From contig NZ_BCZP01000007.1 of NCBI RefSeq assembly GCF_001598795.1, forward strand, positions 280,734-312,733: a stretch of 32,000 nucleotides of DNA, in the 5' to 3' direction. Of the stretch, positions 9,279-24,509 are shown piece by piece (within the stretch, counting starts at the first letter, position 1; each line of letters begins with the position of its first letter). The DNA is from Delftia acidovorans NBRC 14950 (lineage in GTDB: Bacteria > Pseudomonadota > Gammaproteobacteria > Burkholderiales > Burkholderiaceae_C). The position numbers and the translations under genes were made by a program. Under the pieces are notes generated by a model, which was not told the DNA's origin, did no database searches, and worked only from the letters and a program-made list of their open reading frames with translations.

Positions 9279-9297
9279 GCGCCGGCCGGGCCGGCGC
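9279..9297 (-). terminator. GC-rich hairpin 8 nt downstream of the sbp stop
   Basis: GCGCCGG-ccggg-CCGGCGC forms a 7-bp stem. No U-run follows. Confidence 0.4.
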
Positions 9298-9304
9298 GCT
9301 GCAC

Positions 9305-10327
9305 TCACTTCTTGGTGTAGATCTGGTCGAAGCTGCCGCCGTCGGCAAAGTGGTCCTTGTCAGCCTTGGCCCAGCCGCCAAAGGCCTGGTCGATGGTGAC
9401 CAGCTCCAGCTTGGGGAACTTGTCCGCAAACTCGGCCTTGACCTTGGCATCGGTGGGACGGTAGTAGTTGCGGCCGGCGATGCGCTGGCCTTCCTCGGAG
9501 TACAGGTACTTCAGGTACTCCTCGGCCACGGCGCGCGTGCCCTTCTTGTCCACGACCTTGTCGACCACGGCCACCGAAGGCTCGGCCAGGATGGACAGCG
9601 AAGGCACGACGATCTGGAACTTCTCGGGACCGAACTCCTTGAGTGCCAGGAAGGCCTCGTTCTCCCAGGCCAGCAGCACATCGCCCACGCCGCGCTGCAC
9701 GAAGGTGATGGTGGCGCCGCGCGCGCCGGTGTCCAGCACGGGCACGTTCTTGAACAGCTTGCCGATGAAGTCCTTGGCCTGTGCGTCGCCGCCGTACTTG
9801 CGCTTGGCGAATTCCCAGGCGGCCAGGTAGTTCCAGCGCGCACCGCCGCTGGTCTTGGGGTTGGGCGTGATCACCTGCACGCCGGGCTTGACCAGGTCGT
9901 CCCAGTCCTTGAGGTTCTTGGGATTGCCCTTCTTCACCAGGAAGACGATGGTGGAGCTGTAGGGCGCCGAGTTGTGCGGCAGGCGCTTTTGCCAGTCGGC
10001 CTTGAGCAGGTTGCCGTTCTTGACCAGGGCGTCGATGTCGCCGGCCAGCGCCAGCGTGGCCACGTCGGCGTCGATGCCGTCGATGATGGAACGCGCCTGC
10101 TTGCCCGAGCCGCCATGCGACTGCTTGACGCTCACGTCCTGGCCGCTCTTGGCCTTCCAGTGCTTGGCGAAGGCCTGGTTGTACTCCACGTACAGCTCGC
10201 GCGTCGGATCGTAGGAGACATTGAGCAGTTGCACCGACTGGGCCAACGCCGGCAGAGCCGACAGGGTCAAGCCCGCGATCAGGCCGGCGGCGACAGGAAA
10301 CTTGATAAAGTGGCGGCGAATTTTCAT
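9305..10327 (-). CDS. sbp: Sulfate/thiosulfate ABC transporter periplasmic binding protein
   Basis: 340 aa with a signal peptide (ALPALAQS). [13 protein letters not shown]...[30 protein letters not shown]...[19 protein letters not shown] is diagnostic of Sbp/CysP. Confidence 0.95.
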
Positions 10328-10471
10328 TGGAGTGTCGGTAGAGAGTGGAGACGACGGTCTGGTGCCGTGGAAAGCATTCTCAAAGCCAACTCTTAAAACT
10401 CAAACCAATAAGATTTCAGTTTGTTATTCCAAAAACATCTGAATCTCCACAAGACAAGGACTCAATTCCCC
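10328..10471. promoter_or_regulatory. AT-rich divergent control region between sbp and yggX (candidate CysB-type sites)
   Basis: CCAATAAGATTTCAGTTTGTTATTCCAAAAACATCTGAATC is a marked AT island with the imperfect inverted repeat AATAAG..TTATT. The CysB assignment is inferred from sbp being a classic cys-regulon gene. Confidence 0.35.
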
Positions 10472-10744
10472 ATGGCACGTACCGTTCACTGCATCAAGCT
10501 TGGCGTTGACGCTGAAGGCCTGGACTTCCCGCCCTACCCCGGCGAGCTGGGCAAGCGCATTTTTGAAGGCGTGAGCAAGCAGGCCTGGGCCGACTGGCTC
10601 AAGCACCAGACGATGCTGGTCAACGAAAACCGCCTGAACCTGGCCGACGCACGCGCCCGCCAGTACCTGGCCCGCCAGATGGAAAACCACTTCTTCGGCG
10701 GCGGCGCCGATGCGGCGGCCGGCTACGTGCCTCCTACGGCCTGA
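10472..10744 (+). CDS. yggX: Fe(2+)-trafficking / oxidative-damage protection protein YggX (90 aa)
   Basis: [66 protein letters not shown] is the canonical YggX sequence. ATG at 10472. Confidence 0.9.
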
Positions 10745-10762
10745 GCCGCTTCGCGCCTTTTC

Positions 10763-10800
10763 ACCGCCCCCGTCGCAACGCGCCGGGGGCGGTTTCATTT
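10763..10800 (+). terminator. Rho-independent terminator after yggX
   Basis: ACCGCCCCCG (10763-10772) pairs with CGGGGGCGGT (10784-10793) around an 11-nt loop, followed by TTCATTT. Confidence 0.7.
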
Positions 10801-10916
10801 GCGGTGCCGCAAACGGCCGCCGCCCAGAGACCGCCTACAATGCCCGCCTTCTTGCGCTGGACGGCGCAGTGGCCGCACACCCTGCGGCGCGGGCCGGTCT
10901 TCACCCGAGGTTTTCC

Positions 10917-11585
10917 GTGCTTCCATCCGTCTCCCTGCTGGAATCGTTCCAGGCATCGCAGTTCACCGTCATGCTGGTGATCTACCTCGTGGCCATCACG
11001 GCCGAAGCCATGTCGGGCGCGCTGGCGGCGGGCCGGCGCAACATGGACATCTTCGGCGTGGCCGTGATCGCCTTCGTCACCGCGCTGGGCGGCGGCACCA
11101 TCCGCGACATGGTGCTGGGCCACTACCCCATCGGCTGGACGCAGCACCCTGAATATGTCTACCTGGTCATCTCGGCCGGGCTGCTGACCATCGTCGTGGC
11201 GCGCCACATGCACCATCTCAAGCAGGTCTTTCTGCTGCTGGACGCCATGGGGCTGATCGCCTTCTCGCTGATCGGCTGCAACGTGGCGCTGGAGCTGGGC
11301 TATCCGCCCGTGGTGGTGGTGATGTCGGGCATGCTGACCGGCATCAGCGGCGGCATTCTGCGCGACGTGCTGTGCAACCAGGTGCCGGTCGTCTTCCGGC
11401 GCGAGCTGTACGCCAGCGTGTCGCTGGCCGTGTGCCTGCTGTTCCTGGGACTGCGCACGCTGGAAGTGGGCTCCAACCTCAGCACCGTCGTCTGCTTTGC
11501 CGGCGGACTCACGCTGCGCCTGGCTGCCATCCGCTTCAAGTGGCGGCTGCCCGTGTTCTCCTACCAGCAGCGCTGGGAGGAGTAG
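10917..11585 (+). CDS. UPF0126 / trimeric intracellular cation channel (YadS/YicG-like) membrane protein
   Basis: Duplicated glycine motifs ALGGGTIRDMVLG and GISGGILRDVLCN. The start is taken as GTG 10917 (GAGG 8 nt upstream), with an alternative ATG at 10971. The upstream part of track ORF 10710.. overlaps yggX and is rejected. Confidence 0.8.
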   Translation: MLPSVSLLESFQASQFTVMLVIYLVAITAEAMSGALAAGRRNMDIFGVAVIAFVTALGGGTIRDMVLGHYPIGWTQHPEYVYLVISAGLLTIVVARHMHHLKQVFLLLDAMGLIAFSLIGCNVALELGYPPVVVVMSGMLTGISGGILRDVLCNQVPVVFRRELYASVSLAVCLLFLGLRTLEVGSNLSTVVCFAGGLTLRLAAIRFKWRLPVFSYQQRWEE

Positions 11586-11600
11586 TTCTGCCCCTTGCCC

Positions 11601-13541
11601 ATGTCCGAACCCATTGACTGGCTGCCCGATGGCACGCCCTACAGCCCGCGCTTCGGCGACCGCTACCACAGCGAACTCGGCGGCCTGGACCAGGCCCGTC
11701 ACGTCTTTCTGGGCGGCTGCGGCCTGCCGGCGGCCTGGGCCGATGCGCCGCAATGGCGCATCCTGGAGACCGGCTTCGGCTTCGGCCTGAATTTCCTCGT
11801 GGCCTGGGAAGCCTGGAAGACCGATCCCCGGCGCCCAAGGCTGCTGCATTTCGTCTCGGCCGAGGCCTTTCCCGTCAGTGCAGACGCCATGCGCCAGGCC
11901 CTGCCCCGGGAACCCGGCCTGCGTGCGCTGGCCGAGCAACTGGCGGCCCGGTTCCAGGGCCTGCTGCCCGGCGTGCACCGCCTCGCCTTCGAGCAGGGGC
12001 GCGTGCTGCTGACGCTGTACATCGGTGATGCCCAGGCCATGCTGCGGCGCCAGCAGCTCACGGCCGACAGCATCTACCTGGACGGCTTCACGCCGGAACT
12101 CAACCCCGAGCTCTGGAGCGCCGAGACCCTGCGCGCGCTGGCGCGCCATTGCCGGCGCGGCACACAGCTGTCCACCTGGTGCGTGGCGCGCACGGTGCGC
12201 GATGGCCTGGCCCAGCACGGCTTTCAGGTCCGCAAGGTGGATGGCGTGCGCCCCAAGCGCCACAACCTGCATGCCGTGTTTGACCCGGCCTGGCAACCGC
12301 GTGGGCCGCGCGGGCCGCGTGCACAGCCGCAGGAAGCCATCACCCCACGGCGCTGCATGGTGCTGGGTGCAGGCATCGCCGGCGCGGCCGCCGCCGCCAG
12401 CCTGTCGCGCCGTGGCTGGCAGGTCACCGTGCTGGATGCTGCCGACGCGCCTGCAGCGGGCGCCTCGGCCCTGCCCGCGGGCCTGTTCTGCCCCCATGTC
12501 TCGCCCGATGACAGCCTGCTGTCCCGCCTGAGCCGCGACGGCGCACGCCTGACACTGGCGCAGCTGCAAATGCTCTCCGGCCAGGGCCTGCTGCAACCGG
12601 GCACGGACTGGTGCGATACCGGCGTGCTGGAGCATGGCGTGGAAGCCGCCCCGCGGCTGCCGCGCGACTGGCAATCCCCCGGCCCGGGCGACCACTGGAG
12701 CCGGCCCGCAAGCGCCGATCAACTCTCGGCGGCCTGCCTGCCTGCCGACGCCCCGGCCTGCTGGCATGCGCAGGCCGGCTGGGTGCGCCCGGCGCGGCTG
12801 GTGCAGGCGCAGCTGGCGCTGCCCGGCGTGCGCTGGCAGGGCCGCGCCTGCGTGGCGCGTCTTGCATGCACCGACACAGCCGGTGGCGCGCCCGTCTGGC
12901 AGGCCCTGGATGCACAGGGCAATCTGCAGGCCGAGGCTGAACTGGTCGTTATCGCACTGGGCCCCGCAACGAATACGCTGCTGGAGCACAGCCTGGGCGC
13001 CCAGGCCGCCTGGCCGCTGCAGCCCATACGCGGCCAGGTCAGCTGGGATGTGCACACCCCGGCCAGCGCACATGCCATGCCGCCCTTCCCCGTCAACGGC
13101 CATGGCAACCTGGTGCCTGCCATGCCGCTGCCCGGCGATGCAGCCGGGCCAGGCTGGGTCATGGGATCGACCTTCGAGCGCGACCAGACCGCGCTGCCGC
13201 CAAGTCCCGAAGACCAGGCCGCCGCCCATGCAGCCAATGGCGCCAAGCTGGCGCAGCTGCTGCCAGGTGCCTATCAGGGCCTGCAAGGCTTCTTCGACGC
13301 GCCACCGCGCGCCACCTGGGGCGCCGTGCGCGTGGCCTCGCCAGACCGGCTGCCCGTGGTCGGACCGGTGTCCGATCAGGCTCCCGGCCTGTGGGCCCTG
13401 ACGGCCATGGGCTCGCGCGGGCTCACGCTGTCGCTGCTGTGCGGCGAGCTGCTGGCAGCACGCCTGCACGACGAACCGCTGCCCCTGGATGCCAGGCTGG
13501 CGGCTGCCCTGGCCAGCGAGCGCCTGGGCCGCAGGCGCTGA
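11601..13541 (+). CDS. mnmC: Bifunctional tRNA (mnm5s2U34) methyltransferase / FAD-dependent cmnm5s2U34 oxidoreductase
   Basis: N-terminal MnmD-type domain (DWLPDGTPYSPRFGDRYHS...ILETGFGFGLNF). C-terminal DAO domain with VLGAGIAGAAAAASLSRRGWQVTVLD. ATG at 11601 (the track start 11595 is TTG). Confidence 0.9.
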   Translation: MSEPIDWLPDGTPYSPRFGDRYHSELGGLDQARHVFLGGCGLPAAWADAPQWRILETGFGFGLNFLVAWEAWKTDPRRPRLLHFVSAEAFPVSADAMRQALPREPGLRALAEQLAARFQGLLPGVHRLAFEQGRVLLTLYIGDAQAMLRRQQLTADSIYLDGFTPELNPELWSAETLRALARHCRRGTQLSTWCVARTVRDGLAQHGFQVRKVDGVRPKRHNLHAVFDPAWQPRGPRGPRAQPQEAITPRRCMVLGAGIAGAAAAASLSRRGWQVTVLDAADAPAAGASALPAGLFCPHVSPDDSLLSRLSRDGARLTLAQLQMLSGQGLLQPGTDWCDTGVLEHGVEAAPRLPRDWQSPGPGDHWSRPASADQLSAACLPADAPACWHAQAGWVRPARLVQAQLALPGVRWQGRACVARLACTDTAGGAPVWQALDAQGNLQAEAELVVIALGPATNTLLEHSLGAQAAWPLQPIRGQVSWDVHTPASAHAMPPFPVNGHGNLVPAMPLPGDAAGPGWVMGSTFERDQTALPPSPEDQAAAHAANGAKLAQLLPGAYQGLQGFFDAPPRATWGAVRVASPDRLPVVGPVSDQAPGLWALTAMGSRGLTLSLLCGELLAARLHDEPLPLDARLAAALASERLGRRR

Positions 13542-13552
13542 GCCGTTGAACC

Positions 13553-13575
13553 GCCCGGCCGCTGAACGGCCGGGC
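13553..13575 (+). terminator. GC-rich hairpin after mnmC
   Basis: GCCCGGCCG-ctgaa-CGGCCGGGC forms a 9-bp stem. No clear U-run follows. Confidence 0.45.
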
Positions 13576-13632
13576 ATTCACACAACGGCCTGAAAGAAAA
13601 CCCGAGTCTTCCCGCAGACGGTTTTTGTCACT

Positions 13633-13656
13633 CGTTATGTTTGTTAGTGCATATCG
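13633..13656. promoter_or_regulatory. ModE-type (molybdate-responsive) operator look-alike
   Basis: The window has CGTTATGT-TTGTTAG-TGCAT-ATCG. The E. coli modA operator, as I remember it, is CGTTATAT-TGTCGCC-TACAT-AACG (TATAT-N7-TAYAT rule). That gives 14/17 matches outside the spacer. The half-sites also form an imperfect 8-bp inverted repeat (CGwTATGy). Confidence 0.45.
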
Positions 13657-13663
13657 CTAGAAT
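13635..13663 (+). promoter_or_regulatory. Candidate sigma70 promoter of the TonB-receptor operon (-10 TAGAAT 13658-13663; weak -35 TTATGT 13635-13640; alternative -35 TTGTCA 13625-13630)
   Basis: Read directly in the only AT-rich island of the 190-nt mnmC/receptor spacer. It overlaps the ModE-like box. Confidence 0.35.
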
Positions 13664-13731
13664 CCGGAACCTGTTTTCAAAAGGAAACAACCAGCCGCTC
13701 CCCGCGTTCAACCACACAAGAACCTGAAACC

Positions 13732-15813
13732 GTGATCCGCCAGCCCCGCTCCTGCGCTCCCGCATCCTCACCCGCCCTCTGCTCACCCTCGTTCCGCCTT
13801 CGCTCCGCACTGACACACGCCCTGCTGCTCGCAGGCCTGGCCGCCAGCACGCAGGCGCAAGCCCAGGTCGAGGCCCAATCGGGTGCGCCTGCAGCCCAGG
13901 CTTCGCAGACCTTCCAGTTGGGCACGGTCGATGTGCACGGTGCGCGTGATGAGGCGCAGGCCATATCCGGCGATGAACAGCGACTGGGCGCCGACGAGAT
14001 GCGCCAGCGCAATGCCGACACCGTGGCCGACGCCGTGCGCCTGCTGCCGGGCGCCACGCTGTCGCGCAACAATCGCAACGAGGAAATGATCTACCTGCGC
14101 GGCTTCGATCCGCGCCAGGTGCCGGTCTTCGTGGACGGCGTGCCGCTGTACGGGCCCTATGACGGCTATGTGGACTTCGGCCGCTTCACCACGTTCGACC
14201 TGTCCGAGATCCGCGTGGCCAAGGCTGGCGCATCGCTGATGTATGGCCCCAATACGCTGGGCGGCGCCATCAACCTGGTCACGCGCAAGCCCGTCAAATC
14301 CTTCGAGGGCGATGCGCGCATCGGCGCAGGCGCAGGCGGCGAACGCAAGGCCGCCGTGAACCTGGGCGGCAACCTGGGTACCTGGTACTACCAGCTTGGC
14401 GCCTCCTACCTGGACGCGGACAGTTTTCCGCTGCCCAAGGGCTTCAAGGACTTCAAGAAGCAGCCCACCGACACGGGCAACTACCGCGACAACGCCTACC
14501 GCACGGACAAGCGGCTGTCGTTCAAGCTGGGCCTCACGCCCAATGCCACGGACGAATACGCGCTGGGCTATGTGCGCCAGGAAGGCGAGAAGGGCAACCC
14601 CGTGTATACCGGCAGCGCCACGGGCAAGAACGTCATCCGCTACTGGCGCTGGCCCTACTGGGACAAGGACAGCGTGTACTTTCTGAGCACCACGCGCATC
14701 AATGCCGACAACCTGCTCAAGACACGCATCTACCACGACACCTACCAAAACGGCCTGGACATGTACACGGACGCGAGCTACACGCGCCATGACCCCACCA
14801 GCAGCTACAAGGACGTGAGCCAGGGCGCCAGCATCGAGTGGGCCAACTACAGTTTCAAGGGCCATGCGCTGCGCCTGGGCGCGCACTACAAGATCGACGA
14901 GCACACCGATGCCGCCTCGGCCAAGGACCCCAGCAAGCACTACCGCGACGTGACGCGCTCCCTGGTGATCGAGGACACGATCTCCCTGGCCGAACGCTGG
15001 AGCCTGAACCTGGCGCTCAGCCACGACCAGCGCGATGCGCGCGAGGTCTACCAGTGGCCCACGGGCTCCGCCAGCGCCACCAATGGCGTGGCCAAGCTCG
15101 GCTATACGCTGGGCGGTGGCAGCGAGGCGTATTTCATCGCCTCGCACAAGACGCGCTTTCCCACCATCAAGGACCGCTACTCGGCACGCATGGGCACGGC
15201 CCTGGCCAACCCCGACCTGCAGCCCGAGACGGCCAACCACCTGGAGCTGGGCGTCAGCGGCTCACCCTGGCAGGGTGGCCAGGGCCAGGCCGCGCTGTTC
15301 TACAGCCGCGTGCGCAACCAGATCCAGACCGTGGTCGTGGCCTCGGCCGAATGCGGCGGCACCACCTGCAACCAGGCGCAGAACGTGGGGCGCACGCGCA
15401 ACATCGGCATGGAGCTGTCCCTGGCCCAGCAACTGTCCGCGCAATGGGGCGTGAACGCCGGCTACACCTACCTGAACCGCCGCAATACCAGCGACTCCAG
15501 CATCACGCTGACCAACACGCCGCGCCACCGCCTGCTGGCCGGCGTTCAGTGGCGTCCGCTGGCGCAGTGGGAATTCAATGCCGAGGTCGAGACCGAGAAG
15601 GGCCGCTACGTGCCGCTGTCGGGCAGCGGCCAGCTGCAGACGCTCAAGCTGTCGGGCTACGGCATTGCCAACCTGCGCGCACGCTACAAGCCGCGCAGCG
15701 ACATCACCGTGGACTTTGGCGTGGCCAATATCGGCGACAAGTGGTACCAGTTCGATGACGGCCTGCCCATGCCGGGCCGCAGCTGGTATGTCAACCTGGG
15801 CTATCGCTTCTGA
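13732..15813 (+). CDS. TonB-dependent outer-membrane receptor (693 aa)
   Basis: Signal peptide ALLLAGLAASTQAQA and a TonB-box-like FQLGTVDVHG. Plug motifs IYLRGFDPRQVPVFVDGVPLYGP and GPNTLGGAINLVTRKP. Barrel terminus YVNLGYRF. The start GTG 13732 is the first in-frame start and lacks a clear SD, so it is uncertain. Confidence 0.9.
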   Translation: MIRQPRSCAPASSPALCSPSFRLRSALTHALLLAGLAASTQAQAQVEAQSGAPAAQASQTFQLGTVDVHGARDEAQAISGDEQRLGADEMRQRNADTVADAVRLLPGATLSRNNRNEEMIYLRGFDPRQVPVFVDGVPLYGPYDGYVDFGRFTTFDLSEIRVAKAGASLMYGPNTLGGAINLVTRKPVKSFEGDARIGAGAGGERKAAVNLGGNLGTWYYQLGASYLDADSFPLPKGFKDFKKQPTDTGNYRDNAYRTDKRLSFKLGLTPNATDEYALGYVRQEGEKGNPVYTGSATGKNVIRYWRWPYWDKDSVYFLSTTRINADNLLKTRIYHDTYQNGLDMYTDASYTRHDPTSSYKDVSQGASIEWANYSFKGHALRLGAHYKIDEHTDAASAKDPSKHYRDVTRSLVIEDTISLAERWSLNLALSHDQRDAREVYQWPTGSASATNGVAKLGYTLGGGSEAYFIASHKTRFPTIKDRYSARMGTALANPDLQPETANHLELGVSGSPWQGGQGQAALFYSRVRNQIQTVVVASAECGGTTCNQAQNVGRTRNIGMELSLAQQLSAQWGVNAGYTYLNRRNTSDSSITLTNTPRHRLLAGVQWRPLAQWEFNAEVETEKGRYVPLSGSGQLQTLKLSGYGIANLRARYKPRSDITVDFGVANIGDKWYQFDDGLPMPGRSWYVNLGYRF

Positions 15814-15835
15814 AGCACGGACTGGCCCTGAATCC

Positions 15836-16711
15836 ATGGAACCGCTCTGCCCCGATCGCCGCCGCCTGCTGGGCGCCCTGCCCGCGCTGGCAGCCCTGAG
15901 CGGCTGCGCCGCCCAGCCGGCCGAACCTGCCAGCGTGAACGTGGCCGTGGTCGGCGGCCTGTCGCTGTGCGGTGTGTGGCCGCACCTGGCCGACGCGGCG
16001 GGCCGCAGCCTGGGCCTGTCCGTGCGCACCGCCGTTGCCGCGCCCAAGGAGGGCGTGATCCCCGCCATGGCCCAGGGCCGCGCCCAGCTGCTGCTCATCC
16101 ACGCCAGCGATGAAGCCATGTCGCTGGAGGCTGCCGGCCTGGCATCGGCCGCGCGGGTCTGGGGCTGGAACGAGCATGTGTTCGCCGGCCCAGCGCATGA
16201 TCCGGCCGGGGTGCGCGGCGCGGCCGATGGCGTGGAGGCCATGCGCCGCATCGTTGCCAGCGGCTCGCCCTTCATCGCGCTGCGCGACCCCGGCAGCTAT
16301 ACCGTGGTCCAGCGGCTGTGGCGCCGCGCCGGCATACGGCCGGACGCCCGCTGGCTGCGCGCCGACACCGGGCCGCGCCCCCAGGCCGTGCTGCAGTTGG
16401 CGGCCGAGCTCCAGGCCTATGCCGTGGTGGGCCATATCCCGCTGCATTTCGGCAAGATGGGCGCGCCCGGCATCGAGCTGCTGCTGCACGGCGACCCGCT
16501 GATGCGCCGGCCCTATGTGCTGCTCACGCTCGGGCCGCGCCATCCGGCCGACGCTGGCCAGCGCCGCAGCGCGCAACGGCTGGCCGAGCATCTGCTGTCC
16601 GCACCGGGCCAGCAGGAACTGGCGCTGGCCAATGTGGCAGCCGGAGGTCCCTGGATCTTCGGGCGCGACAGCATGCCCCTGGTCAACGACACCGGCGGCG
16701 GCCAGGAGTAA
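15836..16711 (+). CDS. Lipoprotein with a tungstate/molybdate-binding-protein (TupA / PBP_like_2) fold, divergent (291 aa)
   Basis: MEPLCPDRRRLLGALPALAALSGC has an RR motif plus a lipobox. LLLIHASDEAMSLEAAG...NEHVFAGPAHDPAGVRG...PFIALRDPGSYT...LQAYAVVG...RPYVLLTLGP parallels the TupA blocks VVLVHAxxxE..F...G...NDFVIVGPxxDPAGI...PFISRGDDSGT...QAYTLTDRG as I remember them. Confidence 0.75.
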   Translation: MEPLCPDRRRLLGALPALAALSGCAAQPAEPASVNVAVVGGLSLCGVWPHLADAAGRSLGLSVRTAVAAPKEGVIPAMAQGRAQLLLIHASDEAMSLEAAGLASAARVWGWNEHVFAGPAHDPAGVRGAADGVEAMRRIVASGSPFIALRDPGSYTVVQRLWRRAGIRPDARWLRADTGPRPQAVLQLAAELQAYAVVGHIPLHFGKMGAPGIELLLHGDPLMRRPYVLLTLGPRHPADAGQRRSAQRLAEHLLSAPGQQELALANVAAGGPWIFGRDSMPLVNDTGGGQE

Positions 16712-16744
16712 AAACCTGCCTGGATCCCACAAGCACCGCATGCC

Positions 16745-17293
16745 ATGAACTCACCTGCCACCCTGCCCCTGGCCGCCCTGGTCCATCCCGACGACGAGCA
16801 TGCAATGGAGCTGCTGCTCGAACGCGTGGCACGCCGCCTGCAAGGCGCGGGCTGGCGCGTGGGCGGCCTGGTGCATCGCCAGGACCGCTATGCCAACGGC
16901 AACAAGCGCATGCAGTTGTTCGACCTGCGCAGTGACCGCCAATTCGAGCTGTCCCAGGACCTGGGCTGCGCCTCGCGCGCCTGCAGTCTCAACCCCCAGG
17001 CCCTGGCCCAGGCCAGCGCCGTGCTTCGCCAGGCGCTGGACGATGGCGTGGATCTGGTGGTAATCAACCGCTTCGGCATCGTCGAGGCCTCGGGCCAGGG
17101 CTTTGCCGCAGAATTCGCGGCCTTTGTCGAGGCCGGCACGCCCGTGCTCACGGCCGTCGCGGCCCGCCATCTTGAAGACTGGCGCAGGTACACCGGCAGC
17201 CTGCATGCCGAGCTGGCAGCCGATGAGGTGCAGATCGAGCAATGGTGCCAGGCACAGCTTGAGCGCCGTGGCTGCGCCAGCCCCATCCCCTGA
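16745..17293 (+). CDS. DUF2478 domain protein (182 aa, no signal peptide)
   Basis: LAALVHPDD...LLERVARRLQGAGWRVGGLVH...MQLFDLRSDRQFELSQDLGCASRACSLNPQAL...GVDLVVINRFGIVEASGQGFAAEFAAFVEAGTPVLTAV matches the DUF2478 pattern (PF10649, from memory). No P-loop is present. Confidence 0.8.
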   Translation: MNSPATLPLAALVHPDDEHAMELLLERVARRLQGAGWRVGGLVHRQDRYANGNKRMQLFDLRSDRQFELSQDLGCASRACSLNPQALAQASAVLRQALDDGVDLVVINRFGIVEASGQGFAAEFAAFVEAGTPVLTAVAARHLEDWRRYTGSLHAELAADEVQIEQWCQAQLERRGCASPIP

Positions 17294-17298
17294 TTTTC

Positions 17299-18360
17299 AT
17301 GACCGATCTTCTGTTCACCCGCCGCCGCTGGCTGGGCCAGGCCATGGCGGCACTGGCCTCATCGGCTCTTGTTCCCGGCCATGCCCAGGCAACCACGATT
17401 GCCGCCCGCATGGGACAGATGCCGGACCCTGCCAGGCTGCGCCGCGTATTCGCGGCGGGACCGCCCGCAGGCGTGCTGGTGGCCACGCTTGCACCGCACA
17501 AGCTGCTGGGCTGGCCCCAGCAGCTGGACGATGTCTCGCGCGCCTATCTGGGGCCCACGTTGCAGGCGCTGCCGCACCTGGGCCGCCTGTCCGGGCGCGG
17601 CAGCACCATGCCGCTGGAATCGCTGCTGAAGCTGCAGCCCGACCTGGTGCTGGACGCCGGCACGGCCGATACCACCTATATCTCGGCCACCGAGCGGCTG
17701 GCGCGCCAGACCGGCCTGCCCTGCGTGCTGATCCAGGGCTCGCTGGCCGACCACGCACGCCAGTTGCGCGAGGTCGGCGCCTTGCTGGGCGAGGCTGCGC
17801 GTGGCGAAACCCTGGCCCGCCATGCCGATGCCGTGGCAGCACTGGCGCAGCGTGCCACCCAGGGCATGGCACCGGCCGAGCGCCCGCGCGTCTATTTCGC
17901 GCGCAGCGCCAATGGGCTGGAAACAGGGCTGGCGGGCTCCATCAATGTGGAAGCCGTCGAGTACGCGGGCGGGCGCAATGTGGCCGCCGATGCAGGGCGC
18001 GGCGGGCTCACGCGCGTGTCCATGGAGCAGATCCTGGCCTGGGACCCGCAGGTCATCGTCACGCAGGAACCCGGCCTTGCCGAGCGCATGCGCCAGGACC
18101 CGCTGTGGCGCGGCGTGGCCGCCGTGCGCTCGGGCCGCGTGCACTGCGCGCCGGTCTGGCCCTTCGGCTGGCTGGATGGTCCGCCCGGCGTCAACCGGCT
18201 GATCGGTGTGCGCTGGCTGCTGGAAAAGCTCCACCCGCAGGCGCCGGCACTGCAGGGACTGCCGCCGTTGGAACGCGAGGTGCGCGACTTCTACCGCCTG
18301 TTCTACGGCGCCGACCTGTCGCCCGCAGCGCTGGGCAGGCTGATGGAGACCGCGCGTTGA
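17299..18360 (+). CDS. Periplasmic binding protein of the siderophore/heme/B12 (FecB/BtuF, cluster A) class with a Tat signal
   Basis: MTDLLFTRRRWLGQAMAALASSALVPGHAQA, then LKLQPDLVLDAG...YISATERLARQTGLPCVLI...ILAWDPQVIV, typical of PF01497-type binding proteins. Confidence 0.85.
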   Translation: MTDLLFTRRRWLGQAMAALASSALVPGHAQATTIAARMGQMPDPARLRRVFAAGPPAGVLVATLAPHKLLGWPQQLDDVSRAYLGPTLQALPHLGRLSGRGSTMPLESLLKLQPDLVLDAGTADTTYISATERLARQTGLPCVLIQGSLADHARQLREVGALLGEAARGETLARHADAVAALAQRATQGMAPAERPRVYFARSANGLETGLAGSINVEAVEYAGGRNVAADAGRGGLTRVSMEQILAWDPQVIVTQEPGLAERMRQDPLWRGVAAVRSGRVHCAPVWPFGWLDGPPGVNRLIGVRWLLEKLHPQAPALQGLPPLEREVRDFYRLFYGADLSPAALGRLMETAR

Positions 18361-19373
18361 TGCCTGCCACAGGCCGCCGCCTGGGGTGGGTGCTTGCGCT
18401 GGCCTTGCTGGCCGCCGTGCTGCTGTGGGCGCTGGCGGTGGGTCAGTTCTCCATCGCGCCGCAGCAGCTGTGGCAGTCGCTTCTGGCGCGCGCAATGGGC
18501 ACTGCCTCGCCCTTGTCCGCCAGCGCCGAGACCGTGCTCTGGAACATCCGCCTGCCGCGCATCGCCGCAGGCCTGGCCGTGGGCGCCACGCTGGCGGCGG
18601 CAGGCGCAGCCTACCAGGGCATGTTCCGCAACCCGCTGGTCTCGCCCGACATCCTGGGCGTCTCGGCCGGTGCCGGCCTGGGCGCGCTGCTGGGCATCTT
18701 CCTGGGCTGGTCCATGGCGGCCGTTCAGGCGCTGGCCTTTGGCGGCGGGCTGGCCGCCGTGGCCGTGGTGGTGGCCATCAGCGCCAGCGTGCGCCGGCAT
18801 GACCCGGTGCTGGTTCTGGTGCTGGCCGGCATTGCGCTGGGCGCGCTGCTGGGCGCGGGCATCGCACTGGTCAAGACGCTGGCCGACCCCAATACGCAGT
18901 TGCCATCCATCACCTTCTGGCTCATGGGCGGCCTGAGCGCCGTGACCCTGCCCGAGCTGGCTGCCGCGGCACCCGTGATGCTGTGCGCCCTGCTGCCCCT
19001 GCTGCTGTTACGCTGGCGCATCAACCTGCTGGGCCTGCCTGACGAGGAGGCGCTGGCCCTGGGCGTGCCCGTGGCACGCCTGCGCCTGCTGCTGGTGGCC
19101 TGTGCCACGCTGGGCACGGCGGCGGCCGTGTCGCTGGCCGGCATCGTCGGCTGGGTGGGGCTGGTGGTGCCGCATGTGGCGCGCCTGCTGGTCGGCCCCA
19201 ATTTCGTGCGCCTGCTGCCGGCCTCGGCCCTGCTGGGCGCGGGCTTCGTGGTTGCGGCCGACACCCTGGCGCGCAGCGCGACGCGCATCGAGCTGCCGCT
19301 GGGCATTCTCACGGCCCTGGTCGGCGCGCCCTTCTTTCTCTACCTGCTGTCGCGCACGGGCCGCAATGACTGA
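18360..19373 (+). CDS. FecCD-family ABC transporter permease (337 aa)
   Basis: ATG 18360 overlaps the previous stop (TGATG). NIRLPRIAAGLAVGATLAAAGAAYQGMFRNPLVSPDILGVSAGAGLGA and GIVGWVGLVVPHVARLLVGPNF are FecCD/BtuC signatures. The 5' 1.2 kb of track ORF 17103..19373 is out-of-frame overlap with the upstream genes. Confidence 0.9.
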   Translation: MPATGRRLGWVLALALLAAVLLWALAVGQFSIAPQQLWQSLLARAMGTASPLSASAETVLWNIRLPRIAAGLAVGATLAAAGAAYQGMFRNPLVSPDILGVSAGAGLGALLGIFLGWSMAAVQALAFGGGLAAVAVVVAISASVRRHDPVLVLVLAGIALGALLGAGIALVKTLADPNTQLPSITFWLMGGLSAVTLPELAAAAPVMLCALLPLLLLRWRINLLGLPDEEALALGVPVARLRLLLVACATLGTAAAVSLAGIVGWVGLVVPHVARLLVGPNFVRLLPASALLGAGFVVAADTLARSATRIELPLGILTALVGAPFFLYLLSRTGRND

Positions 19374-20160
19374 AATGCCGACGGCGCCCGTGCTGCAGAC
19401 GCTGGCCCTGGCCACGGGCCATGGGCGCCGGCGCGTCAGCCAGGGGCTGGACCTGGCCATCACCGCAGGCGAGGTGCTGTGCCTGCTGGGCCCCAACGGC
19501 TGCGGCAAGACCACGCTGTTCCGCACCGTGCTGGGCCTGCTGGCGCCGCTGGCCGGAGAGGTGCGCGTGCAGGGCCAGCCCGTGCACAGCTGGCCGCGTG
19601 CCGAGTTTGCGCGGCGCGTGGGCTATGTGCCCCAGGCGCAGGCCGGCGTCTTCGGCTTCGAAGCGCTGGACATGGTGCTCATGGGCCGTGCCGCGCGCCT
19701 GCCTGCGCTGGCCCGGCCTTCAAGTGCCGACCGTGCCCTGGCGCGGGGCTGCCTGGAGCAGTTGGGCATCGCCCATCTGGCGCTGCGCCCCTATACCGAG
19801 CTGAGCGGCGGCGAGCGCCAGCTGGTGCTGATCGCACGCGCCCTGGCCCAGGAGCCCGCGCTGCTGGTCATGGACGAGCCCACGGCCAGCCTGGACTTCG
19901 GCAACCAGATCCGCGTGCTGGACCAGATTGCCGCGCTGCGTGCACGCGGCATGGCCGTGCTGCTGTCCACCCACCAGCCCGAGCATGCGCTGCAGGTGGC
20001 CGACCGCATCGCCCTGCTGGGCCGCGGCGGCCTGCAGGCCTGCGGTGCGGCGGCGCAGGTGGCGACACCGGCCGCGCTGGCTGCGCTCTATGGGGTGAGC
20101 GAGGCGGCGGTGGCGGCGCGGCTGCCGGCAGACCTGGACAGGCGCAGCGTTGGCATCTAG
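19366..20160 (+). CDS. ABC transporter ATP-binding protein (FepC/FecE/BtuD-like, 264 aa)
   Basis: ATG 19366 overlaps the permease stop by 8 nt. Walker A GPNGCGKTT, signature LSGGERQLVLIARAL and Walker B LLVMDEPTASLD are present. Confidence 0.9.
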   Translation: MTEMPTAPVLQTLALATGHGRRRVSQGLDLAITAGEVLCLLGPNGCGKTTLFRTVLGLLAPLAGEVRVQGQPVHSWPRAEFARRVGYVPQAQAGVFGFEALDMVLMGRAARLPALARPSSADRALARGCLEQLGIAHLALRPYTELSGGERQLVLIARALAQEPALLVMDEPTASLDFGNQIRVLDQIAALRARGMAVLLSTHQPEHALQVADRIALLGRGGLQACGAAAQVATPAALAALYGVSEAAVAARLPADLDRRSVGI

Positions 20161-21200
20161 TGCTTGGGAACGGGCAGCCTCCAGCCAGGCGGGGGCTGCA
20201 GCGGGCGACCTGCGTCCTTGAGCATGCGCTCCAGCAGTTGCTGTTCGCTGTGGATGGAGGGATCGGACAACAGCCGGACAAACGGATCGCCACCCGCCTG
20301 CATGCTCAGTGGGTTGGACTCGTGCATCAGCCAGTCCAGCTGGCGCCGCCGGGACTGCGCTGCAGCGCGCTCGGCCGGGGTTCTGGCAAGCCAGCGCCGT
20401 ATCGCCAGCCCAAAGGCCTCATCCAGCACGGTGGATGCGCGTTCCGTCATCAGGTGCGCCACATGCAGGCAGTCGGCATCTCGCGCCGGGGCATCGCCCC
20501 GCTTTTCGGGCTTGCAGGCATCGATCAAGGTCCGGTAGCCGGGCAGTTCAAAGGCCGCCCAGATGCCCATGGCCGTGATGGCAGCGCCTTCCTCGGGGCG
20601 GTAGGGCTGCCCACCTCCAAACGCCTGCAACTCCTCGGCCGTGGGCGGGTGTTTCAGCAGCGCCGACTGCATCCAGCGCACGCCCTCATACATGTGCAGG
20701 TCCGCATAGCGGCTGTCGCGCGCGGCAGTCAGCAACTCCTGCGGCCCCAGCGCCTGCCACATCAGCGCAGTGAGATTGCTGGGTTCCAGCGCCAGCCAGC
20801 GGCGCGCAGCCTGCAACCGCAACTCGCCTTCACGTTCAGGCGCCCTGGCAGCCAGCAGTTGGTAGGCCAGCACGTCCTGCCCGGCCCGCTCCAAGGCGGC
20901 CTGGCGCCATTGCGGGGCTCGGCTGTCGGCATCCTCTTGTAGGAAGGGTGGGACCGACAGATTGATCAGGATGGCCGCAAAGGCCAGATCGCGCCCGCTG
21001 CCGGAACCGGCCAACTGCGCCGCCACGCGATGCAGATACGCATCCCAGGCCGATTCCTGTGCGGATTCGTCGGGTTCAGGCGTGTCAGCTGTGTGCGCTG
21101 CTGACAACGGGGACGGCGGCTGTGCCGGCTTCTGGACCTGCGCCTGAGCAGCAGTTGCCAACGCCAAGGCCAGCCCGATGGTGGCACAACGGTTTCGCAT
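20157..21200 (-). CDS. Hypothetical secreted protein (347 aa), helix-rich, no family recognised
   Basis: ATG 21200 with GGAGG 9 nt upstream. Signal peptide MRNRCATIGLALALATAAQAQ. GC3-rich codon usage. Its stop overlaps the stop of the convergent ATPase gene in the palindrome CTAG (20157-20160). Confidence 0.6.
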   Translation of the reverse strand: MRNRCATIGLALALATAAQAQVQKPAQPPSPLSAAHTADTPEPDESAQESAWDAYLHRVAAQLAGSGSGRDLAFAAILINLSVPPFLQEDADSRAPQWRQAALERAGQDVLAYQLLAARAPEREGELRLQAARRWLALEPSNLTALMWQALGPQELLTAARDSRYADLHMYEGVRWMQSALLKHPPTAEELQAFGGGQPYRPEEGAAITAMGIWAAFELPGYRTLIDACKPEKRGDAPARDADCLHVAHLMTERASTVLDEAFGLAIRRWLARTPAERAAAQSRRRQLDWLMHESNPLSMQAGGDPFVRLLSDPSIHSEQQLLERMLKDAGRPLQPPPGWRLPVPKH

Positions 21201-21230
21201 TCTGAAATCCTCCCTCTGGCCGGAAAGCAT

Positions 21231-21462
21231 ATCGGCCGCTCATGCGTTTGACATGCCCGGCCCCACAAAGCCTGCTGCCATTCACTTATATCCATATCCA
21301 CATACTTGCAGGACAAAACAATCGTTTGCTTCTATAAGGCCATTGCTTACATTTCCGTCCATGCAGGGTTCTGTGCGTTTCCCGCAAGTGCCTCGGTGCC
21401 ACGCAATGAACCCCTGCACCGCCGCCACTGGCGGCAGTCGAAGACCCCACATCCGAAGCGCC
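21231..21462. promoter_or_regulatory. AT-rich divergent control region upstream of cysI (candidate CysB sites and promoter)
   Basis: TTATATCCATATCCACATAC lies at about 21286-21305. The direct repeat TTGCTT(CTATAAGG)/TTGCTT(ACATTTCC) is at 21326 and 21343. A possible -35 TTTGCT (21325-30) and -10 TACATT (21348-53) have a 17-nt spacer. Confidence 0.35.
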
Positions 21463-23295
21463 ATGTACCAATACACCGAATTCGACAAACAGTTCATCCG
21501 CCTGCGCGCCGAGCAGTTCCGTGACCAGCTCGAACGCTGGCAGGCCGGCAAGCTCTCGGAGGATGAGTTCAAGCCCCTGCGCCTGCAAAACGGCTGGTAT
21601 GTGCAGCGCTACGCGCCCATGCTGCGCGTGGCCGTGCCCTACGGCGAACTGTCCAGCGCCCAGTTGCGCGTGCTGGCCCGCGTGGCCCGCGAGTACGACC
21701 AGCCCGACGCCGCCCTGCTGGCCGAGGCCCGCGCCACCCAGGACCGGCTGGGCGACATCCCGCTGCACGACGGCCGCCGCATCGGCTCCGACCTGAAGTT
21801 CGGCTACGGCCACTTCACCACGCGCACCAACGTCCAATACAACTGGATTCCGCTGTCCAAGGCCGCCGACGTGATGGACCTGCTGGCCAGCGTGAACCTG
21901 CACGGCATCCAGACCAGCGGCAACTGCATCCGCAACATCAACAGCGACGCGCTGGCGGGCATTGCCATCGACGAGATCGCCGACCCCCGCCCCTTCACCG
22001 AAATCCTGCGCCAGTGGAGCACGCTGCACCCCGAGTTCAGCTTCCTGCCGCGCAAGTTCAAGGTCTCCATCAGCGGCGCCGAGGAAGACCGCGCCGCGCT
22101 GGGCTGGTACGACGTGGGCCTGCAGTTGCTCAAGAACGAGGCTGGCGAGCTGGGCTTCAAGGTGCGCGTGGGCGGCGGCATGGGCCGCACGCCCACCATC
22201 AGCCCGGTGCTGCGCGAGTTCCTGCCCTGGAACCAGCTGATGAACTACCTGGAAGCCGTGATCCGCGTCTACAACCGCTACGGCCGCCGCGACAACGCCT
22301 GGAAGGCGCGCATCAAGATCCTCGTGAAGTCCGAGGGCCAGAACTTCATCGACCAGGTCGATGAGGAATTCCGCCAGATCGTCGAGGTCGAGGGTGGCCC
22401 CCACACCATCACGCAAGCCGAGTACGACCGCGTGGCCGCCAATTTCCGCGAGCCCGAGCTGGACCTGTCGCCCGCCAATGCCGAGGCCGAGACCCTGGCC
22501 CTGCTGCGCACGGCCGCCGAGGAAGACAAGGACTTCGGCCGCTGGCTGATCAGCAACGTGCGCCCGCACCGCCACCCGCAACTGCGCGCCGTGCTGCTGT
22601 CGTTCAAGCGCCTGGGCTACGCGCCCGGCGACGCCACGGCCGACCAGATGGATGCCGCCGCCGCGCTGGCCGACCAGTTCTCGGCCGGCGAGATGCGCGT
22701 CACCCACGAGCAGAACCTGCTGCTGCCCTGGGTGCGCCGCGACCAGTTGCCCCAGCTGTACAAGGCGGCAAAGGCCCTGGGCCTGGCCAAGCCCAACATC
22801 GGCCTGCTGACCGACATGATCGCCTGCCCCGGCGGCGACTTCTGCTCGCTGGCCAATGCGCGCTCCCTGCCCATTGCCGAGGCCATCACCGAGCGCTACC
22901 AGGACCTGGACGAGCTGTGGGACCTGGGCGAGATCGACCTGCACATCAGCGGCTGCATCAACAGCTGCGGCCACCACCACAGCGGCCACATCGGCATCCT
23001 CGGCGTGGACAAGGACGGCAAGGAGTGGTACCAGATCACGCTGGGCGGCGCCGACGGCTCCCACCTGTCCGGCCCGGCCACGCCCGGCAAGATCATCGGC
23101 CCCTCGTTCAGCGCCGCCGAAGTGCCCGGCGTGATCGAAGCCCTGCTGACCACCTACCGCGAGCAGCGCCAAAGCGAAGGCGGCCGTTTCGAGACCTTCA
23201 TCGCCACCGTGCGCCGCGTGGGCATCGACCCGTTCAAGGCCGCCGGCAATGCCGCCCGCCACCCCGCCAAGCACACCGAGGAAGCGGCCGCCTGA
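21463..23295 (+). CDS. cysI: Assimilatory sulfite reductase hemoprotein (siroheme/4Fe-4S), 610 aa
   Basis: MYQYTEFDKQFIRLRAEQFRDQLERWQAGKLSEDEFKPLRLQNGWY, then the cluster and siroheme Cys motifs CPGGDFCSLA and SGCINSCGHHHSGHIGILG. ATG 21463 is chosen over the upstream in-frame ATGs at 21361 and 21406. Confidence 0.9.
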   Translation: MYQYTEFDKQFIRLRAEQFRDQLERWQAGKLSEDEFKPLRLQNGWYVQRYAPMLRVAVPYGELSSAQLRVLARVAREYDQPDAALLAEARATQDRLGDIPLHDGRRIGSDLKFGYGHFTTRTNVQYNWIPLSKAADVMDLLASVNLHGIQTSGNCIRNINSDALAGIAIDEIADPRPFTEILRQWSTLHPEFSFLPRKFKVSISGAEEDRAALGWYDVGLQLLKNEAGELGFKVRVGGGMGRTPTISPVLREFLPWNQLMNYLEAVIRVYNRYGRRDNAWKARIKILVKSEGQNFIDQVDEEFRQIVEVEGGPHTITQAEYDRVAANFREPELDLSPANAEAETLALLRTAAEEDKDFGRWLISNVRPHRHPQLRAVLLSFKRLGYAPGDATADQMDAAAALADQFSAGEMRVTHEQNLLLPWVRRDQLPQLYKAAKALGLAKPNIGLLTDMIACPGGDFCSLANARSLPIAEAITERYQDLDELWDLGEIDLHISGCINSCGHHHSGHIGILGVDKDGKEWYQITLGGADGSHLSGPATPGKIIGPSFSAAEVPGVIEALLTTYREQRQSEGGRFETFIATVRRVGIDPFKAAGNAARHPAKHTEEAAA

Positions 23296-23324
23296 CCCCA
23301 GGGTGAGAGCCGCAGGAGATCCCC

Positions 23325-23708
23325 ATGAAAATCATCGCCGCCCAAGAGCACCAAAGCCCGGCCGAAGGCCAGCAGACCATCATTGCCCCGGCCAATGACG
23401 CCGATCCCTTCACGCTGGATCTGACCGGCGTGCAGCGCATCGACCTGCACTTTCCCAAGTTCACCGACGGCCGCGCCTTCAGCCAGGCCCGCCTGCTGCG
23501 CAAGCGCCTGGGCTTCCAGGGCGAAATCCGCGCCACCGGCGACGTGCTGATCGACCAGCTGGTGCAGATGCAGCGCTGCGGCTTCGACGTGGCCGTGCTG
23601 CGCGAAGGCGTGGACATCGCCGACGCCCAGCGCCAGCTCGACCGCTTCCACGGCTTCTACCAGGGCGATGCCGTCCATCCCGAGCCCCACTTCGTCAAGG
23701 CTGCCTGA
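23325..23708 (+). CDS. DUF934 protein (sulfite-reduction associated), 127 aa
   Basis: FPKFTDGRAFSQARLLRKRLGFQGEIRATGDVLIDQLVQMQRCGFD is the DUF934 hallmark. AGGAG lies upstream. It occupies the conserved position after cysI. Confidence 0.85.
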   Translation: MKIIAAQEHQSPAEGQQTIIAPANDADPFTLDLTGVQRIDLHFPKFTDGRAFSQARLLRKRLGFQGEIRATGDVLIDQLVQMQRCGFDVAVLREGVDIADAQRQLDRFHGFYQGDAVHPEPHFVKAA

Positions 23709-23709
23709 C

Positions 23710-24468
23710 ATGGGTGCGCAAAGCTTTCTGTCGCGACAGGCATCGGCCAAGGCCACCGAGGTCAACGGCCGTGCCAGCAGCGGCTTTGCCGACAAGCTGG
23801 CCGCCACCGAGGCCTTGCTGCGCGAGGCAGCGGCGCTGGGCGCCGAGGCCGTGACACAGGCCTCCAGCCTGGGCGCCGAGGATGTGGTGATCACCGACAT
23901 CATCCACCGCCTGGGCCTGGACATCCCCGTCTTCGTGCTGGACACCGGCGCCCTGCATACCGAGACCCTGGCCCTGCTGGAGCGCACCCAGGCGCTGCCC
24001 GGCCTGAGCGTCAAGGTCTACCGGCCGCAACTGGAATCGGTGATCCACTTCATCCGCGACAACGGCCAGGACGCCATGTACCGCAGCATCGAGCTGCGCA
24101 AGGCCTGCTGCGGCGTGCGCAAGATGGAGCCGCTGGCGCGCGCGCTGGCCGGCAAGAGCGCCTGGATCACGGGCCTGCGCCGCGAGCAGTCCAATGCCCG
24201 CGCCGACGTGCCCGCCGTGGACCGCAGCGAGGTCGAGACCAAGGGCCTGACCAAGTTCAACCCGCTGACCGAATGGACCCAGGGCGATGTCTGGCACTAC
24301 ATCGCCAGCCATGGCGTGGACTACAACCCGCTGCACGACCAGTTCTATCCCAGCATCGGCTGCGCACCCTGCACGCGCGCCGTCAGCCTTGGCGAGGACT
24401 TCCGCGCCGGCCGCTGGTGGTGGGAGGATGAAGCGGCCAAGGAATGCGGCCTGCACGCCAAGAAGTGA
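23710..24468 (+). CDS. cysH: Assimilatory adenylyl-sulfate (APS) / PAPS reductase, Fe-S type
   Basis: ATG 23710. It carries the KACCGVRKMEPL and SIGCAPCTR cysteine pairs (Fe-S cluster signature of bacterial APS reductases) and the C-terminal catalytic ECGLH. Confidence 0.9.
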   Translation: MGAQSFLSRQASAKATEVNGRASSGFADKLAATEALLREAAALGAEAVTQASSLGAEDVVITDIIHRLGLDIPVFVLDTGALHTETLALLERTQALPGLSVKVYRPQLESVIHFIRDNGQDAMYRSIELRKACCGVRKMEPLARALAGKSAWITGLRREQSNARADVPAVDRSEVETKGLTKFNPLTEWTQGDVWHYIASHGVDYNPLHDQFYPSIGCAPCTRAVSLGEDFRAGRWWWEDEAAKECGLHAKK

Positions 24469-24509
24469 AGCCTGCAGGGTTTGACACCGATTTGATTGGA
24501 AACCAAGAA

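Follow-up and report, generated by a model that had tools for sequence, protein, structure and literature searches.

Within a 32-kb window, the whole stretch of high-GC DNA (about 68%) from a Delftia strain that we analysed, six co-directional genes encode a TonB-dependent receptor, a TupA-fold lipoprotein, a DUF2478 protein and the three parts of an ATP-binding cassette (ABC) importer. We consider it likely that this operon is a ModE-repressed, TonB-driven scavenging route for scarce molybdenum (Mo), in other words a Mo-starvation operon. Observed in its support are the organisation of the genes, their homologies, an operator that is kept across genera, and genomic associations. The elements of the locus are as follows (aa, amino acids):

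13633-13656, + strand: ModE-type operator, CGTTATGTTTGTTAGTGCATATCG, CGTTAT-N12-ATATCG, fitting the pattern CGNTAT-N12-ATANCG
13658-13663, + strand: putative -10 hexamer TAGAAT, noted by direct inspection of the sequence
13732-15813, + strand: TonB-dependent receptor, 693 aa, GTG start; signal peptide; Pfam Plug and barrel
15836-16711, + strand: TupA-fold lipoprotein, probable accessory protein, 291 aa; RRRLL signal and LSGC lipobox; matches TupA structures
16745-17293, + strand: DUF2478 protein, 182 aa, predicted cytoplasmic; Pfam PF10649
17299-18360, + strand: MolA-like periplasmic binding protein (Peripla_BP_2), 353 aa; TRRRWLG Tat-like signal
18360-19373, + strand: MolB-like FecCD permease, 337 aa; Pfam FecCD
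19366-20160, + strand: MolC-like ABC ATPase, 264 aa; no C-terminal TOBE domain

Start-codon mapping resolved the six genes at 13732-20160, separated by gaps of 22, 33 and 5 nucleotides (nt) and then by overlaps of 1 nt (TGATG) and 8 nt. The gene calls of independent public assemblies agree with this map, which bears out the close packing reported in a preliminary description of this DNA. The same description had let the unit begin at 13625, a position that lies in the promoter/operator region and is not a gene start. A terminator scan detected no intrinsic terminator on the coding strand inside the six-gene unit, and the gene that follows the ATPase gene (20157-21230) is convergent. A D. acidovorans protein is 98% identical to the DUF2478 protein of the window, and identical copies occur in Delftia assemblies.

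The ModE-type operator and its conservation

The pattern CGNTAT-N12-ATANCG has a single match in the 32-kb window, whereas none of 100 shuffled sequences matched it. Run over 4 kb of E. coli DNA around modE-modABC, this pattern returned one site only, CGTTATATTGTCGCCTACATAACG, just upstream of modA, which is the known ModE operator. In the window, the -10-like hexamer TAGAAT directly abuts the operator; the hexamer is kept in Delftia and Comamonas loci, and no good -35 element was found at this putative promoter. The published ModE consensus is ATCGNTATATA-N6-TATATANCGAT (PMC545781), and the site at 13633-13656 conforms to it, at the promoter, in the form CGNTAT-N12-ATANCG.

The operator also precedes the orthologous receptor gene in loci L001-L008, L011, L012, L030, L091 and L093. 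Its hosts include other Delftia, a Comamonas metagenome-assembled genome (MAG), Comamonas composti, an Acidovorax MAG (L011, with a spacer of 11), a Burkholderiales MAG, Ca. Accumulibacter (three copies), Stenotrophomonas and Pusillimonas. At least seven genera of beta- and gammaproteobacteria keep it ahead of the receptor gene. The Pseudomonas operon opens with a version carrying one mismatch. Because the sequence between and around the operator arms has diverged, it is the site itself and not merely the region that is conserved. The ModE-operator look-alike that the preliminary description had pointed out in the promoter region is thus upheld: it is built like the operator of E. coli modA and is conserved across genera.

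Other modes of control fared less well. A cmscan search of the leader (13300-14000) against Rfam, with E-values up to 10, returned chance matches to eukaryotic RNAs only and neither a cobalamin nor a Moco riboswitch; riboswitch control, raised in the preliminary description as a possible refutation, was rejected on this ground. Control by Fur was also set aside, as the best match to the 19-bp Fur consensus reached an unconvincing 11/19. A separate locus, L085, holds a perfect ModE-type box, CGCTATATACACTCGTATATAGCG (12204-12227), with a TupA-like/receptor gene pair upstream of it, a gene for a PEP-CTERM protein downstream of it and a molybdopterin oxidoreductase gene nearby.

The importer, the receptor and their partner proteins

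We compared each ABC component by sequence with all solved structures. For the permease (Pfam FecCD, 1.9e-84), the top match in the Protein Data Bank (PDB) was 2nq2_A, which is HI1471 or MolB (5.1e-64, 220 bits, residues 16-336 aligned to 16-336); heme permeases (6.5e-54 and 2.5e-45) and BtuC (about 3e-35) all ranked behind it. The ATPase (ABC_tran, 1.9e-30) matched best to 2nq2_C, which is HI1470 or MolC (7e-41). The binding protein (Peripla_BP_2, 8.6e-21) matched 4pag (4e-31), 4ovk (8e-19) and HI_1472 or MolA (3psa/3psh, 3.9e-14), with BtuF at about 5e-4. MolBC-A of Haemophilus influenzae is experimentally established as a type II (FecCD/BtuCD-type) importer of molybdate and tungstate, its transcription falls upon molybdate addition, and MolA binds the bare oxyanions of both metals (PMC4031551). 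This system belongs to the FecCD class. The 'chelate-type' importer of the Delftia operon already points to Mo or tungsten (W). The premise of the preliminary description that oxyanion systems use a permease class of their own is contradicted by the same precedent (PMC4031551). Equally, with MolA, MolB and MolC as the relatives of its ABC part, the operon is not the hybrid of a siderophore-type ABC system and oxyanion parts for which it had been taken. The ABC part is most likely a MolBC-A-type importer, predicted to carry molybdate or tungstate.

Both the lipoprotein (DRRRLLG, window 15836-15910) and the binding protein (TRRRWLG, 17299-17390) begin with twin-arginine-like signal peptides, which suggests export by the twin-arginine translocation (Tat) route, unusual for ABC binding proteins. 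The motif of the lipoprotein is kept in its Comamonadaceae relatives and not in more distant ones.

The receptor carries the N-terminal plug and the 22-strand barrel of its class (Pfam Plug, 2.1e-20; TonB_dep_Rec_b-barrel, 1.8e-37), and by eye its residues 63-70 (LGTVDVHG), ahead of the plug, resemble an xTxxVxx TonB box. Against the named NCBIfam receptor families for siderophores, heme or B12 it reached no cut-off, the best score being 165 bits for TIGR01783 (cut-off 223.5); BtuB gave 105 (cut-off 599.7). The closest solved relative, CirA, matches part of the protein (3e-16). In beta- and gammaproteobacteria, the module starts with homologues that share 50-80% identity with it.

The lipoprotein resembles TupA structures in the PDB (3lr1, 1.8e-13; 5my5, 6.6e-13). 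Its sole Pfam match, SBP_bac_11, is sub-threshold (1.4e-4), and no NCBIfam model matched. The PBP_like_2 assignment expected by the preliminary description was dropped for want of a Pfam match, whereas the Pfam families expected for the other five proteins were all recovered. The residues of the TupA tungstate site include TTTS, His59, Arg118, Thr124 and Asp170 (PMC5517513). The lipoprotein has an invariant VVGG in place of TTTS, Leu/Phe for Arg118, Ser for Thr124 and Gly for Asp170, and keeps only His59; a bona fide TupA was rejected on these residues. The TupA fold named in the preliminary description is thus supported by homology, whereas TTTS, Arg118 and Asp170 of the TupA site are absent. 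Nineteen family members share the invariant motifs VGGL, APKEG, LLIH, FRDPGS, VVGHIP and GDPxMRR, and the family has invariant Arg, His, Asp and Trp positions of its own; the lipobox is not found in all. No tupB or tupC (type I permease and ATPase) lies beside the lipoprotein gene, whose neighbours are the receptor, DUF2478 and MolABC-type genes, and distant members of the family always adjoin TonB-dependent receptors. We therefore place the lipoprotein in a new family derived from TupA, as a periplasmic protein that is accessory and associated with receptors, and do not regard it as TupA. Judged by the Ala that follows the lipobox Cys and the E. coli sorting rule, it is probably anchored in the outer membrane, facing the periplasm.

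The lipoprotein gene is absent from the same operon in L005, L006, L008, L030 and L091-L093, that is, in D. acidovorans MMO-42, D. tsuruhatensis NBRC 16741, C. composti, Accumulibacter, Stenotrophomonas, Pseudomonas and Pusillimonas. It is thus polymorphic even within Delftia, where in L005 and L006 (about 9860-10000) the receptor gene is followed by DUF2478 after only about 140 nt. As the gene is missing from other Delftia and from most other genera, the conserved unit comprises five genes; the six-gene unit of the preliminary description holds for the strain of the window, with the lipoprotein as an accessory to the five-gene core.

The DUF2478 protein matches PF10649 over the full length of the profile (2.3e-54, 183.7 bits against a gathering threshold of 22.3). 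With its AlphaFold model (pLDDT 90), Foldseek returned THEP1/NTPCR NTPases as the only significant neighbours (human NTPase 2i3b, 2e-5; THEP1 1ye8, 2.6e-3). In the family alignment, no Walker A motif (GxxxxGK[ST]) follows strand 1, where the window protein has the loop PDDEHA, unconserved in the family, and an active THEP1-type NTPase was rejected because this motif is lacking. Cys80 is invariant. Scanning one genome per species for DUF2478 yielded 255 loci, of which we examined the best 80 (L005-L084, with DUF2478 at about 10001). About 40 of these 80 have Mo/W genes within 10 kb, usually adjacent; these counts describe an association and, being without a matched background, are not a statistic. 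The contexts were:

Receptor-Mol module: 8 loci
nifB, nifA, modD or modAB: 9 loci
aioBA arsenite oxidase: 6 loci
narGHJI: 4 loci
fdhD-mobA: 8 loci
TunR-like regulator with HTH_17 and PBP_like domains: 2 loci
In-frame fusion to DUF4213-DUF364: 3 loci

The gene orders seen include nifB-SIR2-DUF2478-nifA-modD, aioBA-DUF2478 and DUF2478-fdhD-mobA, as well as orders with narGHJI (examples: L023 6893-13654, L047 3638-6693, L061 2315-10507 and L044 10001-12055). Together, these contexts suggest a general cytoplasmic Mo/W role for the family. By association, a cytoplasmic Mo acceptor is plausible for the Delftia protein, which could act as acceptor, chaperone or regulator. The TOBE domain is the part by which ModC senses molybdate, and its absence from the Delftia ATPase leaves room for a regulatory partner such as DUF2478.

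In-frame DUF2478-DUF4213-DUF364 fusions occur in Magnetospirillaceae, Azospirillum and Arenibaculum (L017 9902-11191; L046 and L048, about 10000-11200). DUF4213/DUF364 is annotated as 'putative heavy-metal chelation', and a stand-alone gene of this kind opens the Pseudomonas receptor-DUF2478-MolABC operon (L092, 7135-7950). These arrangements tie two uncharacterised families to each other in the manner of a Rosetta stone.

Gene neighbourhoods, mechanism and rival explanations

Across lineages, the conserved core reads receptor-DUF2478-MolA-MolB-MolC, with DUF2478 a member in all of them; both tblastn and the gene calls supplied with the genome collection confirmed which genes the related high-GC loci have or lack. 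In a Burkholderiales MAG (L012), the core is directly preceded by modA-modB-modC in the same orientation and followed by a gene for a ModE homologue. In Ca. Accumulibacter (L030), the module has modA divergent from it, together with nifQ, the gene for the protein that donates Mo when FeMo-cofactor is made. Stenotrophomonas (L091) encodes, divergently from the module, a full-length ModE with 36% identity to the E. coli protein, in which the molybdate-binding segment TSARNQ is kept. A metagenomic contig of a diazotroph (L089) has the order modE, receptor, Oxidored_molyb protein, receptor, binding protein, permease, ATPase, TupA-like, tonB, exbB, exbD and nifB, and in Thiocystis violacea (L087) the order exbB-exbD-tonB-binding protein-receptor-TupA-like-receptor comes with three ModE boxes. 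The comparison of neighbourhoods proposed in the preliminary description thus showed a core conserved across genera, with modABC, modE, nifQ and nifB adjoining related loci.

Several of these loci hold further genes. In L089 (1253-11823), the two receptors flank an Oxidored_molyb protein of 188 aa, and the cluster, with its private tonB-exbB-exbD set, sits between modE and nifB. A gene for an S-adenosylmethionine (SAM)-dependent methyltransferase directly follows the ATPase gene in four distant lineages of the module (L012 13522-14301, L030 13438-14220, L091 13417-14214 and L092 13566-14363), but not in Delftia. In C. composti (L008, 11732-13708), the genes for the binding protein and the permease are separated by an inserted gene for a methyl-accepting chemotaxis protein. 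Ca. Accumulibacter (L030, 14505-20493) has, just downstream of its module, a second set of genes, which encode a TonB-dependent receptor of 1041 aa, a permease of the FecCD family and a Peripla_BP_2 protein.

In Delftia itself, the operon lies between mnmC and cysI-cysH-cysDN, and ssu and sbp genes come further upstream. The upstream part (3756-10327) encodes an ssu-type ABC protein, a permease, a monooxygenase, two binding proteins and a sulfate-binding protein; the downstream part (21178-26833) holds cysI, DUF934, cysH, cysD and cysN. A link to sulfur metabolism was considered and rejected, as other genera keep the module and change its flanks. This variation makes the sulfur setting in Delftia incidental; it is probably a coincidence, though molybdate can be carried by sulfate transporters. 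The convergent reading frame at 20157-21230 (- strand), which overlaps the ATPase stop by 4 nt, encodes 357 aa with a signal peptide and without a Pfam match, and its called length varies from 169 to 347 aa across Delftia assemblies. A 938-aa reading frame at 10761-13577 (- strand), antisense to mnmC and rich in Ala, Gly and Arg, was dismissed as a high-GC artefact and not a gene.

Which substrate is carried, in which direction regulation works and what DUF2478 and the lipoprotein do, we infer as follows. When Mo is plentiful, molybdate-bound ModE would sit on 13633-13656, overlapping the promoter, and block transcription; when Mo is scarce, the operon would be expressed. The receptor should then draw Mo across the outer membrane, using the proton-motive force via TonB-ExbBD, either as free molybdate at very low concentration or as a Mo-bearing complex. 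In the periplasm, the MolA-like binding protein would take up Mo and deliver it to a MolB2C2 importer for transfer into the cytoplasm, where DUF2478, with a P-loop-less THEP1 fold and an invariant cysteine, may serve as a Mo-handling or regulatory partner. In the lineage of the window, the TupA-fold lipoprotein might assist the hand-over at the receptor.

A number of points weigh against such a Mo-scavenging route. The evidence is wholly computational. The similarity between the binding protein and MolA lies mainly in the C-terminal lobe and a family-specific tail (residues 165-342), the N-lobe being divergent, and two uncharacterised structural-genomics proteins, 4pag and 4ovk, are closer to it than MolA is. 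The MolBC-A importer of H. influenzae has low affinity, and its regulator is not known (PMC4031551); low affinity fits poorly with scavenging, though affinity may differ in Delftia. The alignment shows that the known tungstate/molybdate site is absent from the lipoprotein, and some 20 Thauera/Azoarcus loci as well as Nitrobacter loci carry DUF2478 without a visible link to Mo. Porins normally pass small oxyanions, so that a TonB gate suggests a substrate bulkier than free molybdate. Finally, no modE gene lies within the 32-kb window, and a strict sigma-70 scan found no full promoter, which leaves the -10 element at 13658-13663 putative.

The form in which the metal reaches the receptor is where a rival account comes closest. 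The outer-membrane substrate might be a Mo (or W) chelate, a 'molybdophore' such as catecholate-molybdate, and not free molybdate; before MolABC-type import, the metal would be freed in the periplasm, perhaps aided by the TupA-fold protein, or else the whole complex would be imported. This account departs from the Mo-scavenging route only in the chemical form of the substrate, and we regard it as possible, if doubtful. TonB-dependent receptors typically carry substrates too large or too scarce for porins, the type II ABC class otherwise carries chelates, and the TupA-fold protein, while lacking the oxyanion site, keeps invariant residues of its own. The small Oxidored_molyb protein and paired receptors of L089 fit a chelate as well, and the DUF4213/DUF364 protein of L092 and the methyltransferase that trails the ATPase in four lineages hint at extra chemistry. 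Yet the characterised relative MolA binds bare oxyanions, none of the loci examined has genes for metallophore biosynthesis next to the operon, and TonB-dependent uptake of bare metal ions has precedents in Cu, Zn and Ni (e.g. via OprC).

An ordinary iron, heme or B12 role is unlikely. The Plug/TonB_dep_Rec, Peripla_BP_2, FecCD and ABC families are typical of such systems, and some database names, for instance 'iron complex outermembrane receptor protein', point the same way. To uphold this explanation, however, the Mo signals would have to be coincidental, which we hold to be very improbable: no siderophore, heme or B12 equivalog of NCBIfam passed its cut-off, the leader holds neither a cobalamin riboswitch nor a Fur box better than 11/19, MolB, MolC and MolA are the best or near-best solved relatives, the ModE operator is kept across genera, and modABC, modE, nifQ and nifB turn up as neighbours in related loci. 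A corrinoid or other chelate is no longer 'equally allowed', as the preliminary description had it. A system specific for tungstate also strikes us as improbable. Some databases name homologues of the TupA-fold protein 'tungstate transport substrate-binding protein', MolA binds tungstate too, and ModE-type regulators respond to tungstate as well as to molybdate; but the TupA-fold protein lacks the tungstate site and is dispensable for the module, and the location of the module beside nifQ, nifB and modABC in diazotrophs points to Mo. Delftia, Stenotrophomonas and Pseudomonas are aerobes and are not known for having tungstoenzymes. The central proposal of the preliminary description, an uncharacterised TonB-gated uptake system for Mo or W, is accordingly retained on the strength of the operator, the Mo-gene neighbours, the Mol relatives and the lack of a riboswitch, while its premise on permease classes and the six-gene unit had to be given up.

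Significance and comparison with known systems

In many soils and fresh waters, Mo is limiting for the fixation of nitrogen and the use of nitrate. Textbooks nonetheless describe how bacteria take up Mo from the periplasm onwards (ModABC, TupABC, WtpABC, MolBC-A) and assume that entry through porins is passive. We see roughly even chances that many beta- and gammaproteobacteria, as well as some diazotrophs, possess a dedicated ModE-repressed, TonB-energised Mo gate coupled to a MolBC-A-type importer, with DUF2478 (and the sometimes fused DUF4213/DUF364) as a hitherto unrecognised cytoplasmic Mo-handling protein. If so, the receptor would be the first active outer-membrane Mo transporter, would supply the receptor that has been missing for Mo acquisition at high affinity or by way of a 'molybdophore', and would be a concrete candidate for taking up siderophore-bound Mo. 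Such a gate would explain growth at picomolar to nanomolar Mo and add Mo to Fe, Co (as B12), Ni, Cu, Zn and the lanthanides as metals actively imported across the outer membrane. DUF2478 would serve the maturation of nitrogenase, nitrate reductase, arsenite oxidase and formate dehydrogenase. Two families, DUF2478 and the receptor-adjacent TupA-like proteins, thereby gain testable functions, and as the operon is widespread and present in easily manipulated bacteria (Delftia, Stenotrophomonas, Pseudomonas), the prediction is directly testable.

In the open-access literature, to which our search was confined, we found no description of a TonB-dependent Mo system, a role for DUF2478, a 'molybdophore' receptor or a ModE regulon with TonB; neither TonB nor MolA appears in a 2026 survey of Mo/W use. 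Nor did that literature yield an account of a ModE-controlled receptor in a Mo operon, of the regular presence of DUF2478 in it or of the receptor-associated TupA-like family, though a regulon database such as RegPrecise may mention them. The component superfamilies, MolBC-A and control by ModE are known already.

The closest characterised system is MolBC-A (HI1470/HI1471/HI1472), whose permease, ATPase and binding protein are homologous to those of the Delftia operon, the permease being of the same size as MolB. Transcription in H. influenzae is repressed by molybdate, and for Delftia we propose repression on the basis of the ModE-type operator. The H. influenzae locus contains a second 'modA'-type binding-protein gene, HI1469, together with modD and a second ABC pair (PMC3928620). 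A TonB-dependent receptor or DUF2478 is undescribed in that system, whereas the Delftia unit includes a ModE operator and an outer-membrane gate and has a binding protein with a divergent N-lobe. With E. coli ModE/modABC, the Delftia locus shares the operator architecture CGNTAT-N12-ATANCG over the promoter; two inner positions of the TATAT/TAYAT cores are changed (TATGT...TGCAT), and the target is a receptor with a type II importer instead of the type I ModABC. R. capsulatus morABC was considered as an equivalent and rejected, being ModABC-like and not of the FecCD type.

TupABC, known through TupA of Desulfovibrio alaskensis and Geobacter sulfurreducens, shares with the Delftia lipoprotein its fold class and an equivalent of His59; the lipoprotein differs by the loss of TTTS, Arg118 and Asp170 and of adjoining tupB/tupC, and belongs to a separate, receptor-associated family. 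BtuB-BtuFCD, FhuA-FhuDBC, HmuR-HmuTUV and the lanthanide lut cluster follow the same two-membrane logic with the same protein superfamilies, whereas the Delftia operon has predicted ModE control in place of Fur or a B12 riboswitch, contains DUF2478 and differs in its proposed substrate. Pseudomonas aeruginosa, in the outline that its report gives, releases ModA by type VI secretion (T6SS) to work with IcmP, a protein of the outer membrane (PMC11734730). It addresses the same problem, molybdate at or across the outer membrane under competition, with wholly different machinery, a secreted ModA and a non-TonB outer-membrane protein, where Delftia would rely on a TonB-dependent receptor coupled to a MolBC-A-type importer.

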